A stretch of 63,077 nucleotides of DNA, from contig CAYSNP010000004.1 of the NCBI GenBank assembly GCA_964432485.1, forward strand, positions 24,319 to 87,395, written 5' to 3'. The notes beneath the pieces are model-generated. The model did not search any database. It had not been told where the DNA came from and saw only the letters and a program-made list of their open reading frames with translations. Position 1 is the stretch's first letter, and every line of letters begins with the position of its first letter. This DNA is from an uncultured Christensenellaceae bacterium. Lineage in GTDB: Bacteria > Bacillota > Clostridia > Christensenellales > DTU072. This document shows, in pieces, positions 41,345 through 48,269 of the stretch. Made by a program: the position numbers and the translations under genes.

Positions 41345-41382
41345 AAAGGCGCAAGCGAGACCCTCGCTTGCGCCTTTTTTTT
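41345..41382. terminator. Bidirectional intrinsic terminator
   Basis: AAAGGCGCAAGCGAG, ACC loop, CTCGCTTGCGCCTTT (15-bp perfect stem), T-run; between convergent genes. Confidence 0.9.
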
Positions 41383-43207
41383 AGTTATACGCTTTATGGT
41401 TAAAAGAGGAGACCATACGCTTTAGATACTCCAGCACTTTTTCTTTATCATTATTATGCGCGCACTCTATTAGTTTATCTAAATTGCCCTTAAACAATGC
41501 GGTATCGAAACTCTTTTGCGAGCCTATAAAGATTTTTTTGTTTGGCGTGGTAGCAAGCCCTTCGCTTTCCAGCAGTAGCTCCTCAAACAGCTTTTCTCCC
41601 GGCCGCAAGCCCGTTATTTCTATCTTAATATCCTTATTTGGCTCATAACCTGCCAGCTTAATCATTTTTTCTGCAAGGTCAAGGATTTTTATAGGCTCTC
41701 CCATATCCAATACAAAGACTTCGCAGCCCAGAGCTTGCGCTCCTGCTTGCAGCACCAGAGATGCCGCTTCTTTTATGGTCATAAAGTAGCGAACTATATT
41801 CTCATCAGTTACAGTAATTGGTCCTCCTGAGGCAATTTGTTTCTTAAATAAAGGGATTACCGAACCATTGCTGCCTAGCACATTGCCGAATCTAACAGAT
41901 GCAAATACTGTGCCGCCCTCCTCGCCAACCATTCGGATTACTTTTTCCGCTACACGCTTAGTTGCACCCATAATGTTGGTAGGGTGAACCGCTTTATCCG
42001 TAGAAATCAAAATAAACTTTTGCACCTTAAAACTTTGCGCCATTTGCGCAACAATCAGCGTGCCTTCCACATTGTTTTTAACAGCTTGCTCAGGAGTAAT
42101 TTCCATAAGAGGAACATGTTTGTGAGCGGCGGCATGAAAAACTAAGTCAGGTTGGTGAGTATTAAAGAACAACTTTAGCCTTGATTGGTCTGTAATAGAA
42201 AAAATCTCCACCACAAGGTTAAGCGCTTCTCCATATTTATGTATCAGCTCTTGCTGAATCTCATAAGCATTGTTTTCATAATTGTCTATTATCAGCAGCT
42301 TAGCAGGGGCATAAGTGGCAATTTGGCGGCATAGCTCGCTGCCTATAGAGCCTCCGCCGCCGGTTATTAGGCAGGTCTTATTATTAATTAGCGCTTTAAT
42401 ATCCTTATCGTCAAATTTAGCACTTTCTCTGCCTAATAAGTCCTCAATTTTTACGCTTTCTATTACATTGAAACTCTTTGCGCCGCTAAGAATATCGTTG
42501 ATATCAGGCAGTGTCTTTAGGTCACAGCCGCTCTTTAAGCAAATATTGAGGATGCGCCTTTTATTGTAATCGTCGCAATCGGGCATAGCAAAAATAATGC
42601 TTTTAATATTGTAATGTTGGCATATATCCAATATATCCTCGCTAGAGCCAAGTACAGGTATATCGTCTATTGTACGGCTGTGCATTTCGGACCTATCGTC
42701 TACAAAACCAATAGGGTTATAGCGGCTGTGGTAACCTTTTAGCTCTGCCAAAATGTTTTTTGCAGGCCATCCTGCGCCAATAATTAAGGTGGGGTTGGCA
42801 GGCTTGTAATATAGTTGCCTTGCGCTAGTTTTACCGGTATTATAAATTAATCTAATACTGATTAGTGTAAGGGTGGCAAGCGCAGCGGATATAATAAATA
42901 TCAATAGCTCGCCGGGCAAATCGAGTATTGTCATAGCAAGCATAGCAGAAATAAAGCCCGCCAGCGTACAGGCGGTCAGCAGCCGCAAGTAATCATGATA
43001 TACTGCATATCTCCAAACAGGCTTATAGATTCTAAAAACTTCAAAAGCGGCATAGTAGGTAAAGAGCAAAACAAGAGCGGCAAGGATAGTTTTGCCGCTT
43101 GAGATATTGGCAAGGTTGCCTTTATTTACAAGGAAAACTAAAAAAGTATAAACACCTAAAATAATAGCAGAATCAATAAGCCTTAGCAGCAGTTTTCTTT
43201 TGCTCAT
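41381..43207 (-). CDS. Nucleoside-diphosphate sugar 4,6-dehydratase (CapD/PglF/WbpM-type)
   Basis: N-terminal TM helices; IIGAG; ITGGGGSIGSEL, FHAAAHKHVP, STDKAV, MGATKR, VRFGNVLGS, GLRPGEKL. Confidence 0.93.
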   Translation of the reverse strand: MSKRKLLLRLIDSAIILGVYTFLVFLVNKGNLANISSGKTILAALVLLFTYYAAFEVFRIYKPVWRYAVYHDYLRLLTACTLAGFISAMLAMTILDLPGELLIFIISAALATLTLISIRLIYNTGKTSARQLYYKPANPTLIIGAGWPAKNILAELKGYHSRYNPIGFVDDRSEMHSRTIDDIPVLGSSEDILDICQHYNIKSIIFAMPDCDDYNKRRILNICLKSGCDLKTLPDINDILSGAKSFNVIESVKIEDLLGRESAKFDDKDIKALINNKTCLITGGGGSIGSELCRQIATYAPAKLLIIDNYENNAYEIQQELIHKYGEALNLVVEIFSITDQSRLKLFFNTHQPDLVFHAAAHKHVPLMEITPEQAVKNNVEGTLIVAQMAQSFKVQKFILISTDKAVHPTNIMGATKRVAEKVIRMVGEEGGTVFASVRFGNVLGSNGSVIPLFKKQIASGGPITVTDENIVRYFMTIKEAASLVLQAGAQALGCEVFVLDMGEPIKILDLAEKMIKLAGYEPNKDIKIEITGLRPGEKLFEELLLESEGLATTPNKKIFIGSQKSFDTALFKGNLDKLIECAHNNDKEKVLEYLKRMVSSFNHKAYN

Positions 43208-43265: not shown

Positions 43266-43883
43266 TTATATCTTTTTAGCTTTTTTTAAAAAAGACCTAA
43301 ACAGCAAAACTGCAACAGCAAGGAAAGCAATAAGTAAAAAAGCAAATAAAATTACATCTAAATATGCTATAAAGAGCCAACATAACAAGGTCATAATTAG
43401 GGCGGAACATAAGTTGCCCAGTGCTATGGCAACAAGGGCGGGAGCAAACCTTAAGTTGAGCAGTACAGCAATGGCGCACCCTGACCAAACTCCTGTCATA
43501 GGCAACGGAATGGCTACAAACAGCATTAACGCAAGCAATTTATATCTTTCTACCTCTCTGTCTTTTGCCAGCTTCATTGATTGTGCATAAACGCTTTGTG
43601 CCTTTTTTGCAAAAAGGGCTTCCAATGCAGTTGCCAGCTTGCTTATTAATTTAATCTTTTTTAGAGCATTCAAGACGGGATAAAAGAATAACAATAGCAA
43701 AGGAATAATTAACATTGACCCTGTAAGCGAAAACAGCAAGGCATAAGCAGGACTCATACCTCCGGCAAAAGCTATAGGCACTGCGCCTCTGACTTCTATT
43801 ATAGGGATAGCGGAAATTATGCCCACTACAAGTGCATTGCTGCCTAGTAACCCTTGCAAATATATTACAATTGCTTTTGTCAT
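43266..43883 (-). CDS. Small multidrug export-like membrane protein (COG2426-type)
   Basis: IPIIEVRGAVP and FVAIPLPMTGVW motifs. Confidence 0.8.
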   Translation of the reverse strand: MTKAIVIYLQGLLGSNALVVGIISAIPIIEVRGAVPIAFAGGMSPAYALLFSLTGSMLIIPLLLLFFYPVLNALKKIKLISKLATALEALFAKKAQSVYAQSMKLAKDREVERYKLLALMLFVAIPLPMTGVWSGCAIAVLLNLRFAPALVAIALGNLCSALIMTLLCWLFIAYLDVILFAFLLIAFLAVAVLLFRSFLKKAKKI

Positions 43884-43886
43884 TGG

Positions 43887-44906
43887 CTATGGTGTCCTAA
43901 AGTTATACTCTGCCTTAAATACCTCTTTACTGCGGGCAATACATAAGCTGTTAGCGGGAACATCCTTAGTAACAGTGCTGCCTGCGGCAATAAAAGCTCC
44001 ATCTCCTATAGAAAGAGGCGCAACTAAATTGGCATTAGCTCCTATAAACACATTTTTACCCACTTGCACCCCTCTCTTTTGCTTTCCGTCATAGTTGCAA
44101 AACACTGCACCGCAGCCCACATTTGTGCCCGAGCCCACAAAGCTATCGCCTATATATGCCAAGTGCGCCGCTTTTACATTATCCGCAAGCGTAGAGTTTT
44201 TTATTTCTACATAATCGCCCACCCGGCAATTATCGCCTATATGAGTACCGCTTCTAAGGCAAGCAAAAGGACCGATTGTGCAATTCTTGCCTACAAAAGC
44301 ACCTACACAAAAGGAAGAGCGCACTTCGCTATTGTTATCAATGCTGGTATCGACTAAGTTGCTGTAAGGATAGACAGTTACCCCTTCGCCTATTATAGTC
44401 CTCCCTTGCAGCCAATTCATAGGATATACAACACTCCCTTTGCCAATGACCACAGAAGGTTCGATATAAGTAGTCTCCGCATCCATAATCAGCACATTGT
44501 TAGCTAGCCATTTTTGGCAGCTAGCATGCTTTAGATAGGAAAACATTTTTGCAATATCCGCCATAGAAGTTACTACAAGCGCTTTTTCTTCGGTAGCAGT
44601 TATATTATCTCCCAATGCCGATTGCATGTCAACAATAAACCCATTGCCAATAAAACATTTAGCAATATTATGTTTGCGCATCTGCTTGCATTTTTCCTTA
44701 ATAAACTCAATATCGCATAAAGGAGTGTCATTGTAAATTACCGCTATAAAACCGCTATAATTGTAATCTATCTCGCTTTCCGCCCCTATTATTTGAGCTT
44801 CTGCCAAGTTATACCTTGCATATTGTCCGACAGCCCTGCCCATTATTATAAGTTCCGCGCCTAAATAGTTTCTTTCAATTAAATATATCTTTAGTTCCTT
44901 CCCCAT
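43887..44906 (-). CDS. glmU: GlmU-like glucosamine-1-phosphate acetyltransferase with a shortened, degenerate uridylyltransferase domain
   Basis: LbH domain intact (IGPFACLR, VEIKNS, HLAYIGD, CNYDG, FIGAN, AGSTVT); no AAGxGTRM loop; only 339 aa. Confidence 0.8.
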   Translation of the reverse strand: MGKELKIYLIERNYLGAELIIMGRAVGQYARYNLAEAQIIGAESEIDYNYSGFIAVIYNDTPLCDIEFIKEKCKQMRKHNIAKCFIGNGFIVDMQSALGDNITATEEKALVVTSMADIAKMFSYLKHASCQKWLANNVLIMDAETTYIEPSVVIGKGSVVYPMNWLQGRTIIGEGVTVYPYSNLVDTSIDNNSEVRSSFCVGAFVGKNCTIGPFACLRSGTHIGDNCRVGDYVEIKNSTLADNVKAAHLAYIGDSFVGSGTNVGCGAVFCNYDGKQKRGVQVGKNVFIGANANLVAPLSIGDGAFIAAGSTVTKDVPANSLCIARSKEVFKAEYNFRTP

Positions 44907-46186
44907 ATTATCTCTCTTGTCTTGTTTGTAAGCCGGCAGCTTAATTGCGCTACAGCTTCCTCATCTTCGCCTTGTACCATAACCCTGACAATGGGCTCTG
45001 TTCCGCTTTTTCTAATTACTGCATTGACTCCTAAGCGCGCAAGCTCCTCTGTGCTTATAATCTCCTCTATTTTCAAATCTATGCTTGCATTTTTCGGCAA
45101 TTTTATTGAACTCAGCAATTGAGGACAGCTTGTAAATAACCTCTCTGTTTTAATTTTGCCCTCAATGTAAAGCTGGCTTAGCAGCAGCGCAATCAGCAGT
45201 CCGTCCCCTGTGTTTTGATAAAGGGTATTGACAATATGCCCTGATTGCTCTCCGCCTAAGGTATAACCTTCCTTTTTGATAAGTTCAAGTACATTTTTAT
45301 CGCCTACTGCCACCCTATGCAAGGTAATCCCTTTTTTGGCAAGCGCACGCTCCAGCCCCAAATTGCTCATTACCGTACCCACTACCCCGTTATGAGCAAG
45401 CGTGCCTTCATCGTGCATTTGCTGAGCCAATATTTCAAGGATATAATCGCCGTTTAAGGTTTTTCCGTCTACCCTGCATACCACTCTATCCCCGTCACCG
45501 TCAAAGGAAAACCCCAGCTTTATACCGTTGTTATCCATAAACTTTTCTAATGCCGCAGGATAAATTGCACCACAATCCTTATTAATATTATGTCCGGAAA
45601 TTTCCTCATTTATGATAAAAGCCTTGCACCCAAGTCTGGAAAATAAATCTCTTGCCACCACAGCGGTTGCCCCGTTAGCGGTATCCAAAGCAAGTGTCAA
45701 GCCTGCAAGGTTAGGCGCAATGACTTTGATTAGGTATCTAATATACTCTTCATTGGCAATTGATTCATATATAATAGTACCAGAATTGCCGAAAATAGAC
45801 GGGATTTGCTCAAGAGCTTGTTCAATTTTATCCTCCAAAGCAGAGTTGATTTTATATCCGTCTTTATCAAATATCTTTAGTCCGTTATCTTGAGGCGGAT
45901 TGTGTGATGCGCTTATCATAATCCCTGCATTTGCCCCGTGCACTCTGGTATAAAAAGCTAGTACAGGAGTTGGAGCTAGACCTAGTGATACAACATTCAC
46001 CCCAATTTTATTTAATACCTTTGCTAAAGCAGTTTCAATATCTTTGCCGCTGACTCTGGTATCTCGGGCAAGCACATATTCGCCTTGCCCAAAGACCTTA
46101 ACTATTGCCCCGGCAAACTTTTCCAGAAAATCAAGTGAAAAAAAATCGGCATTTTTCCTTATGCCATCCGTTCCGAAATACTTCAT
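44891..46186 (-). CDS. glmM: Phosphoglucosamine mutase
   Basis: YFGTDGIR, RDTRVSG, ISASHNP, DGDGDR, GGEQSGH, RKSGTEP. Confidence 0.92.
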   Translation of the reverse strand: MKYFGTDGIRKNADFFSLDFLEKFAGAIVKVFGQGEYVLARDTRVSGKDIETALAKVLNKIGVNVVSLGLAPTPVLAFYTRVHGANAGIMISASHNPPQDNGLKIFDKDGYKINSALEDKIEQALEQIPSIFGNSGTIIYESIANEEYIRYLIKVIAPNLAGLTLALDTANGATAVVARDLFSRLGCKAFIINEEISGHNINKDCGAIYPAALEKFMDNNGIKLGFSFDGDGDRVVCRVDGKTLNGDYILEILAQQMHDEGTLAHNGVVGTVMSNLGLERALAKKGITLHRVAVGDKNVLELIKKEGYTLGGEQSGHIVNTLYQNTGDGLLIALLLSQLYIEGKIKTERLFTSCPQLLSSIKLPKNASIDLKIEEIISTEELARLGVNAVIRKSGTEPIVRVMVQGEDEEAVAQLSCRLTNKTREIIWGRN

Positions 46187-47699: not shown

Positions 47700-48269
47700 T
47701 TAACTTTTATGCAGTATGCCCTTATGATATTTATTATAAAGTTGCAGCTTATTATTAAGAATCTCTATCATTTCTTGCGCGCACATAGCAGGATAAACCA
47801 TATCATTTTCTATATTTTCATAGCGTTGACGGTAATCAATAGGAGAGCCCGCCAGCTTATTTGACCAACCTTTCACACCGGTAAAGCCAATTATCAGCCT
47901 GCCAAGCGCCCAAGCCATACTCATTTCGCTAAGGGTGCCTGTGCCGCCGCCAATAGCTACCACCGCAGAAGCATTGGCTACAATGACATTGCGGTAAATA
48001 TCAAGTCCTGTGGGTATCACAATATCAGCAAATTCATTAGCGGCCGAAGGGTCAAATCCGGGCAATATTGCAATAGTATCGCCCTCTTTATAGCAAGCGC
48101 TGCTCTTTGCTCCCTTAAACGCTGCTTCCATTATGCCGTCCAGTCCGCCGCTTTGCACACGGTAACCGTTATCTACCAGCGCTTTTCCTGTTTCAAATGC
48201 AAGTTGATATTTCTTTTCGTTACTCTTTATTCCAGCATCGCCAATTACGGCAATAATTCTTCTTCTCAC
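47700..48269 (-). CDS. LOG/SLOG-family protein (TIGR00725-like); GTG start
   Basis: IAVIG, SGGLDGIMEAA, ILPG, RNVIV, GGGTGTLSE. Confidence 0.8.
   Translation of the reverse strand: MRRRIIAVIGDAGIKSNEKKYQLAFETGKALVDNGYRVQSGGLDGIMEAAFKGAKSSACYKEGDTIAILPGFDPSAANEFADIVIPTGLDIYRNVIVANASAVVAIGGGTGTLSEMSMAWALGRLIIGFTGVKGWSNKLAGSPIDYRQRYENIENDMVYPAMCAQEMIEILNNKLQLYNKYHKGILHKS

Follow-up and report, generated by a model that had tools for sequence, protein, structure and literature searches.

A putative acetyltransferase-only GlmU coupled to glmM in a Christensenellales family without canonical GlmU

Bacterial GlmU is a bifunctional enzyme of about 450 amino acids (aa), and both of its activities, acetyltransferase and uridylyltransferase, are textbook-essential and are pursued as antibiotic targets. 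C-terminal fragments of GlmU reportedly keep acetyltransferase activity, a result ascribed to Pompeo et al. in 2001. Staphylococcus aureus uses a UAP1-like enzyme, NagU, and many NagU-bearing bacteria have either lost GlmU or retain its C-terminal acetyltransferase domain only (Fong et al., bioRxiv 10.64898/2026.06.23.733835). That 2026 preprint gave the first exception to the textbook picture. Here we describe a short glmU gene from an uncultured Christensenellaceae bacterium (assembly GCA_964432485.1). It lies in a 63,077-nucleotide (nt) stretch of contig CAYSNP010000004.1, positions 24,319 to 87,395, hereafter the window; the genome, G000, is a draft metagenome-assembled genome (MAG) of 1.94 Mb in 95 contigs, 97.2% complete. 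We consider it probable that the gene encodes an acetyltransferase-only GlmU and that uridylyl transfer, the last step toward UDP-N-acetylglucosamine (UDP-GlcNAc), takes place in trans.

Architecture of the short GlmU

The gene and the parts of its product lie as follows in window coordinates.

43887..44906, minus strand: short glmU, 339 aa, a candidate monofunctional glucosamine-1-phosphate (GlcN-1-P) N-acetyltransferase; GlmU models cover its C-terminal half only
44592..44906, minus strand: vestigial nucleotidyltransferase domain, residues 1-105, which keeps Y58-N-D-T-P-L63
44487..44591, minus strand: linker and long alpha-helical arm, residues 106-140, aligned to GlmU model positions ~216-250
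43890..44486, minus strand: left-handed beta-helix (LbH) acetyltransferase domain and C-terminal tail, residues 141-339

The ATG of this open reading frame (ORF) sits 16 nt inside the 3' end of the upstream glmM, and an in-frame stop lies 18 codons 5' of it in DNA that glmM occupies; no longer N-terminus can therefore be hidden, in agreement with a first-pass annotation of the window, which had reported a 339-aa ORF with a 16-nt overlap and no missed upstream start. Homologs begin at the matching position (MGKELKIY, MEREVKIY, MGFNIKVY). Pfam recognizes Hexapep/LbH domains only, with PF00132 (Hexapep) at 85.8 bits, above its gathering score of 27, and gives no match to an NTP_transferase domain (PF00483, PF12804) in the short protein. 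In every NCBIfam GlmU model, the aligned part begins at about position 214 and runs to the end; for TIGR01173, model positions 216-447 align to residues 105-335 at 246.5 bits, below the cut-off of 366.85. GlmU chains in the PDB match from the arm onward, the best of them being S. aureus GlmU 9dqf (E 1.7e-55). An AlphaFold2 model built with 72 homologs has a mean predicted local distance difference test score (pLDDT) of 94.5, with 95-97 in the N-terminal blocks, and comprises a compact small alpha/beta domain, a DSSP helix at residues 115-135 and a beta-helix from near residue 140, which matches the earlier estimate of about 135 aa ahead of the beta-helix. When the whole-chain model is searched with Foldseek, full GlmU structures rank first, at 0.81-0.83 in template modelling (TM) score normalised to the query. 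The same architecture is shared by over 70 homologs of 318-350 aa; given these and the confident model, the short GlmU is no assembly artefact.

The nature of the loss is visible in an alignment that sets 76 short forms against 15 full-length GlmUs from Clostridia, all taken from one homolog search. Relative to the closest full-length clostridial GlmU, the short form has four clean deletions totalling 111 aa: 31 aa (GTRMKSSKPK...) that contain the nucleotide-binding signature loop and the next helix, 8 aa that contain the Q..LG (Q..LGxGHA) block that reads uracil, 65 aa that make up the entire sugar-binding lobe, and a further 7 aa. The collapse of the uridylyltransferase domain proposed in the first-pass annotation, including the disappearance of the GxGTRM loop from the ORF, is thus borne out, and on this alignment the uridylyltransferase catalytic apparatus is physically deleted, beyond mere mutation. 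The first strand is left over, as are one strand-helix unit, a strand with the D-T-P-L remnant of GDxPL, a G-x-G-[YF]-I remnant and the long helical arm. Only five of the 105 N-domain columns are conserved at 90% or more in a 72-sequence alignment (G23, P62, L63, L69, G87), and D60-T-P-L, the counterpart of the Mg-binding GDxPL in GlmU, is 78-99% conserved. Between G000 and its same-genus ortholog, nonsynonymous and synonymous differences (pN and pS) are 0.27 and 0.93 in the N-domain and 0.14 and 0.74 in the beta-helix; synonymous sites are saturated (pS 0.7-0.95), so these values give a pN/pS contrast rather than an exact dN/dS by domain. To judge from this contrast, the relic domain is clearly constrained, though its rate of change is roughly double that of the catalytic domain. 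Residues 1-125 alone had no match at E <= 1e-3 among 1.84 billion representative proteins, because the domain is too divergent for a single-sequence search.

As for the acetyltransferase half, eight residues do not vary across 72 homologs (R218, K236, H248, Y251, N262, N271, K277 and R325), and a ninth, E234, is shared by 71 of them. The first seven correspond to R332, K350, H362, Y365, N376, N385 and K391 of Streptococcus pneumoniae GlmU, at an offset of 114. The sole departure among acetyltransferase residues concerns Ser404/405: the short forms have Ala or Cys there, and the nearest full-length GlmUs from Clostridia have Cys too. The motifs named in the earlier annotation are all in place (YNDTPL at residues 58-63, HLAYIGD at 248-254, CNYDG at 270-274), and its claim of an intact acetyltransferase half is well supported by catalytic and substrate residues that are invariant or nearly so. 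On these comparisons, the short protein is not a bifunctional GlmU by score or by N-terminal domain, while its acetyltransferase domain and arm are those of a GlmU.

Distribution of GlmU forms and coupling to glmM

The earlier reading depended on there being no full-length glmU elsewhere in the genome. None above the TIGR01173-type cut-off was found in the G000 contigs, and canonical GlmU was likewise found in none of the 24 other genomes from the same family, one of them of the same genus (0/25 with G000). Among genomes from other families of the order, 8 of 16 have canonical GlmU, at 546-574 bits. The short form, which the first-pass annotation had proposed to map across relatives, proved widespread in an order-wide sample of 251 genomes at >=90% completeness: the canonical cut-off is reached in 94 and not in the other 157, about 122 having partial forms only and 35 nothing at E <= 1e-40. 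The partial forms make up a series that starts with intermediates of 390-445 aa, whose N-domain is longer though degenerate, continues with forms of ~320-345 aa and ends with beta-helix-only proteins of 205-250 aa, with fusions in addition. Genome G038 exemplifies the intermediates, with a 400-aa GlmU whose longer N-domain is motif-less and a separate GlmU-N-like gene (196 bits) that adjoins a GHMP-type kinase and a phosphohexomutase (loci L031:3023-4225, minus strand, and L032:1915-2991, plus strand). Named relatives with partial forms include uncultured Clostridia and Christensenella-like MAGs. Matches of ~400 aa to GlmU model positions 3-330 in relatives were considered as archaeal-type GlmU and rejected as GlgC orthologs, because the GlgC of G000 yields the same match pattern.

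The inventory of G000 comprises the short glmU, a 341-aa paralog (contig C26), a 233-aa NTP-transferase (contig C16), GalU (contig C48), GlgC, GlgD and IspDF (contig C56). The last is the 398-aa NTP_transf_3 protein of that contig, considered as a sugar nucleotidyltransferase and rejected. The duplication is old, as each of the two short genes has an ortholog in the same-genus genome.

C26:10510-11535 (= L001:1153-2178), plus strand: the other short GlmU paralog (341 aa; 50% identity to the window copy), beside an mtnN-like nucleosidase gene and without glmM

A position beside an mtnN-like gene is, in other lineages, the conserved position of glmM-short glmU.

The window copy overlaps the only glmM-like gene in G000, and the two genes are translationally coupled.

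44891..46186, minus strand: glmM, phosphoglucosamine mutase (431 aa) with four PGM_PMM domains; TIGR01455 covered from position 1 to 438 of 442, at 380 bits

Ten contexts were sampled from other genomes and metagenome contigs, and eight of them show the short glmU overlapping glmM or directly abutting it. In the ninth (G014) the called glmM and short glmU ORFs overlap by ~280 nt, which suggests a mis-called start; in the tenth the short glmU takes the place that glmU has in the classical Firmicutes order glmU-pth-mfd, a sign of decay in place. The association extends to gene fusion, which is the strongest functional evidence for the role of the short GlmU. Four family genomes with the GlmU C-terminal domain and no C16-type gene carry that domain in frames of 660-695 aa, three of which (G004, G012, G019) are confirmed GlmM-LbH fusions with arm and beta-helix behind a complete GlmM (657-682 aa). 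The order is reversed in G021, where a 650-aa LbH-GlmM fusion has nagB beside it and galU ~1.5 kb off, and comparable frames of 690-702 aa occur in other families of the order.

L028:3328-5316, minus strand: GlmM/GlmU beta-helix fusion
L029:1730-3703, plus strand: GlmM/GlmU beta-helix fusion
L033:969-3017, minus strand: GlmM/GlmU beta-helix fusion
L030:2964-4916, plus strand: GlmM/GlmU beta-helix fusion

The remaining neighbours of the pair in the window include a direct consumer of UDP-GlcNAc.

41381..43207, minus strand: CapD/PglF-like UDP-GlcNAc 4,6-dehydratase, 608 aa, Polysacc_synt_2 at 384.7 bits; direct UDP-GlcNAc consumer
43266..43883, minus strand: COG2426/PF06695 small membrane protein just downstream of short glmU, Pfam Sm_multidrug_ex at 108.7 bits
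46277..47647, minus strand: Wzy_C/O-antigen-ligase-like membrane protein, 58.5 bits with Pfam Wzy_C, encoded upstream of glmM
47700-48269, minus strand: SLOG cluster-4/LOG-like protein (Pfam), 189 aa, just upstream of the Wzy_C gene

A CapD/PglF-like gene near glmM-short glmU is conserved in L054-L063, and the gene order Wzy_C-glmM-glmU-COG2426-CapD is repeated in L062, followed there by a bacillosamine-type glycan pathway; the COG2426/PF06695 gene has a like position in that locus. MurA and MraY signatures are present in G000, which together with the dehydratase means that the organism needs UDP-GlcNAc. Giant Flg_new-type genes come after short glmU in several metagenome contigs. In G000, contig C2:76693-97833 (minus strand) is a single ORF of 7046 codons, a chance motif match whose first 50 residues resemble a lipoprotein-type signal peptide.

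As to the supply of glucosamine-6-phosphate (GlcN-6-P), hidden Markov model searches found no full-length GlmS in G000 or most family genomes (the control was positive in 14 of 14 genomes), and motif searches of G000 for GlmS and classical NagB were negative. G000 may make GlcN-6-P with ammonia via the SIS-domain protein below, or may rely on amino-sugar salvage. The other GlmS-search match in G000 is PurF.

C19:31150-32175, minus strand: SIS-domain half-GlmS-like protein, ~345 aa, matching GlmS positions 251-605, with a GlmD/NagB-II/AgaS-type look

Candidate routes to UDP-GlcNAc

The GlmM fusions, the adjacency to glmM and the demand for UDP-GlcNAc suggest that the short protein is a GlcN-1-P N-acetyltransferase that works directly on the GlmM product. 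GlmM would turn GlcN-6-P into GlcN-1-P; the trimer-forming beta-helix would acetylate this with acetyl-CoA to N-acetylglucosamine-1-phosphate (GlcNAc-1-P); and GlcNAc-1-P would become UDP-GlcNAc in trans, through an enzyme other than GlmU, NagU/UAP or GlmR. The N-terminal ~105 residues would be a folded, catalytically dead relic under weaker purifying selection, probably retained to lend stability or to act as a spacer along the helical arm, and would be dispensable where lineages have swapped them for GlmM or lost them wholly. The observations behind this account are the domain loss, the intact acetyltransferase residues, the genome-wide and lineage-wide lack of canonical GlmU, NagU and GlmR, and the glmM fusion and synteny.

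Three other explanations were weighed. The short protein might itself still uridylylate through a cryptic activity of its N-domain, so that no second enzyme is required: the domain is predicted to be folded with high confidence, is under purifying selection and retains the D60-T-P-L remnant. We regard this as very improbable, since the deletions take out the entire GxGTR(M)x4PK loop, the Gln/Gly block that binds uracil and the 65-aa sugar lobe, no NTP_transferase model matches the N-domain, its conserved positions are Gly, Pro and Leu, that is, structural, and related lineages discard the domain altogether or have GlmM in its place. Nor does it seem at all probable that a canonical glmU or nagU sits in the unassembled ~3% of the genome, with the short gene an accessory paralog. 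The draft state of G000, with its 95 contigs, does weigh against our reading here, and the genome does hold two short paralogs; however, none of the 25 family genomes, a set in which several reach 96-99% completeness, exceeds the GlmU cut-off or matches PF01704, canonical GlmU is wanting from well over half of the order-wide sample as well, and both short paralogs have same-genus orthologs. The third explanation concerns function, and would make the window copy a PglD-like sugar N-acetyltransferase, recruited from GlmU to the adjoining bacillosamine-type glycan pathway. Its position between Wzy_C and the CapD/PglF-like dehydratase region would suit such a role, as would the continuation of the homologous L062 cluster into a DegT aminotransferase, Bac_transf and glycosyltransferases and the existence of a second short paralog elsewhere in the genome. 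Yet all GlmU-specific GlcN-1-P and acetyl-CoA residues are invariant, the gene overlaps the genome's only glmM, relatives carry the domain as a fusion with GlmM, and L062 already supplies the PglD function through a separate GNAT fused to Bac_transf; we therefore consider a PglD-like role highly unlikely.

If the short GlmU is an acetyltransferase only, another enzyme must uridylylate, as the first-pass annotation had proposed; with the active site deleted and no full-length glmU found, that proposal stands as a prediction from gene content. The annotation had suggested two kinds of replacement. The UAP/UDPGP type falls away, as PF01704 (UDPGP/NagU) has no match in G000 or any of the 25 family genomes; a match in G031 served as positive control and makes the absence in G000 meaningful. 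The other kind, a stand-alone NTP-transferase, does exist in the genome (C16), as a candidate only. G031, which belongs to another family of the order, has neither a GlmU acetyltransferase nor a uridylyltransferase domain and fits the NagU account of Fong et al.

L015 (G031:C3:65088-65996), minus strand: UDPGP/NagU-like gene, 407-aa frame, PF01704 at 143 bits

GlmR/YvcK, described as an accessory uridylyltransferase of Listeria (PMC10128056), was considered and rejected because the gene is absent (the control was positive in 11 of 14 genomes).

Like the enzymatic activities themselves, the identity of the putative uridylyltransferase can be proposed from gene content. Tentatively, and as a possibility short of a probability, we propose a class-II GalT together with GalU. 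Characterised class-II GalTs use UDP-glucose (UDP-Glc) as donor and prefer N-acetylhexosamine-1-phosphate (HexNAc-1-P) (bioRxiv 10.64898/2026.09.13.751320). The class-II GalT would move uridine monophosphate (UMP) from UDP-glucose onto GlcNAc-1-P, and GalU would remake UDP-glucose from uridine triphosphate (UTP); with UDP-Glc regenerated in this way, the net reaction would equal that of the lost GlmU domain. GalT would thereby serve the same HexNAc-1-P pool that the kinase NahK fills by salvage.

C56:4704-5822, minus strand: close homolog of NahK (Bifidobacterium N-acetylhexosamine 1-kinase), E 1.7e-95 to PDB 4wh1; no NCBIfam model match

NahK, GalU and a class-II GalT with the HxHxQ motif are all present in G000. 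The GalT, encoded at C3:78295-79824, has 509 aa, an intact HIT motif (SHEHFQ), a CxxC Zn site and a PF01087 score of 65.8 bits, above the cut-off of 22.1; the GalU scores 254 bits with TIGR01099, below the cut-off of 327. In counts that ignore shared ancestry, as do those for NahK and C16 below, class-II GalT is found in 24 of the 25 family genomes, and in 30/33 genomes without canonical GlmU versus 2/8 with it; the same two of these eight relatives also have NahK. NahK itself occurs in 22 of the 25 family genomes, among them all seven without both short GlmU and C16, so that the family must uridylylate HexNAc-1-P independently of C16. Two lineages (L059-L061; G014) have an operon-like run of glmM-short glmU-nahK-galE, in which the pair is followed without a gap by nahK and a galE-like gene; in L059-L061, galK and class-II galT are found within 12 kb.

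Several observations weigh against the GalT route. The G000 GalT scores 579 bits with NF003629 and 483 bits with TIGR01239, both under the NCBIfam equivalog cut-offs, and its gene and galK are divergent, as in an ordinary Leloir setting. The association is no longer significant once the focal family is left out (6/8 versus 2/8, p = 0.13). The N-acetyl pocket (BlGalT2 F176/M179/A182) lies in a flexible segment that is hard to align. The wider form of the proposal seems somewhat unlikely: much of the order would make UDP-GlcNAc, an essential precursor of peptidoglycan, without a GlcNAc-1-P pyrophosphorylase, a HIT-family class-II GalT taking UMP from UDP-glucose, with GalU as the only UTP-consuming step and the de novo and NahK salvage routes merging there. 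If this were true, cell-wall synthesis would hang on a 'Leloir' enzyme, the GlmU uridylyltransferase domain would have been caught in stages of decay (450 to ~400 to ~335 to ~225 aa) or of replacement by GlmM, and the radiation would amount to well over half of the Christensenellales-like order.

The C16 protein offers a more conventional solution, in which GlmU would be truly split and a classical pyrophosphorylase would convert GlcNAc-1-P and UTP to UDP-GlcNAc and pyrophosphate (PPi). This 233-aa NTP-transferase, encoded at C16:29878-30579, has an intact GGKGTRLxPLTxxxPKP loop, scores 173 bits with PF00483 and 143.7 bits with the archaeal-GlmU N-domain model TIGR03992, and has a UTP-sugar-1-phosphate uridylyltransferase as its best PDB relative (8x7s, 3.9e-45). 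Stand-alone orthologs, at identities of >=50%, are confined to genomes that lack canonical GlmU (16/33 versus 0/8). Within the family C16 tracks the short GlmU, with both present in 12 genomes, the GlmU C-terminal domain only in 4, C16 only in 2 and neither in 7 (Fisher p = 0.017), and in G022 and G010 a COG2426 gene neighbours the C16-type gene, as it does short glmU in the window. The protein was placed in an archaeal-GlmU-N/GMPP/MurU-like group. Against it as the missing enzyme, it falls under every NCBIfam cut-off, and a mannose-1-phosphate (Man-1-P) guanylyltransferase model scores equally well (154.9 bits). It is missing in G004 and G019 (99% and 96% complete), GlmM-fusion genomes that need the same step, and it is never next to glmM or glmU, its conserved neighbours being RNase J and serC (11 relatives), which are uninformative. 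Its closest relatives, moreover, are fusions of nucleotidyltransferase, LbH and phosphomutase domains of the GDP-mannose-pyrophosphorylase type; homologs of this build, 744-816 aa, occur in relatives with canonical GlmU.

L066:407-2641: NTP_transferase, short LbH and phosphohexomutase fusion
L067:421-2871: NTP_transferase, short LbH and phosphohexomutase fusion
L068:389-2779: NTP_transferase, short LbH and phosphohexomutase fusion

The fusion partners of C16-like proteins (LbH with phosphoglucomutase/phosphomannomutase) were tried as a clue to substrate and set aside, as they cannot separate GlcNAc-1-P from Man-1-P. On balance we rank the GalT route as the foremost candidate, C16 as a somewhat unlikely one and promiscuity of GalU as decidedly improbable, and leave the remaining probability to some other enzyme.

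Comparison with described systems

Whichever enzyme completes the pathway, the uridylyltransferase half of GlmU has also been lost across much of a gut-associated clostridial order of abundant and mostly uncultured bacteria, in family genomes without NagU or GlmR, and the locus offers, in nature, a graded set of decaying domains together with GlmM fusions. Automated "bifunctional GlmU" labels over-predict pathway completeness in such genomes.

With canonical GlmU (TIGR01173; S. pneumoniae 1G97/4AAW, S. aureus 9DQF, Escherichia coli 1HV9) the short form has in common the arm, the beta-helix, the C-terminal tail and the acetyltransferase residues. It differs in its pyrophosphorylase domain, which is reduced from ~225 to ~105 aa with only the DxPL remnant of the binding elements left. 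Engineered C-terminal constructs of E. coli GlmU (PDB 4AA7, 3TWD; 222-231 aa) form a stable beta-helix alone and align to residues 129-331 (E ~1e-34); these are laboratory truncations, whereas the short GlmU is a natural, conserved gene that carries a relic domain in addition. The S. aureus GlmU Ser169 variant resembles the proposed arrangement in that its acetyltransferase works, its uridylyltransferase is compromised and the cell leans on another enzyme; that variant, however, is a full-length protein with a point change and residual activity, while the active site of the short GlmU is deleted.

The Bifidobacterium galacto-N-biose/lacto-N-biose (GNB/LNB) module (NahK, class-II GalT = LnpC/BlGalT2, GalE) is like G000 in its NahK and class-II GalT. 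It is catabolic and accompanied by a canonical GlmU, whereas its counterpart in G000 would be an anabolic route to UDP-GlcNAc, and, unlike in the bifidobacterial module, galT in G000 lies with galK.

The closest parallel is with the C-terminal-only GlmUs of Fong et al., which are likewise acetyltransferase-only, occur without a full-length GlmU and, in the interpretation of those authors, rely on another enzyme for uridylylation. Those cases were found starting from NagU and are mostly from the Planctomycetes-Verrucomicrobia-Chlamydiae (PVC) superphylum, in contrast to the 25 NagU-free family genomes described here; the short GlmU further differs from them in its retained relic N-domain, in its GlmM fusions and in its candidate partners, GalT with GalU or a nucleotidyltransferase. 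No prior description of a NagU-free acetyltransferase-only GlmU arrangement was found in the literature searched. What is new here, relative to these systems, is that NagU is missing, that most of an order shares this state, that a relic domain has been kept, that fusions with GlmM occur and that two specific candidates for the missing enzyme can be named.

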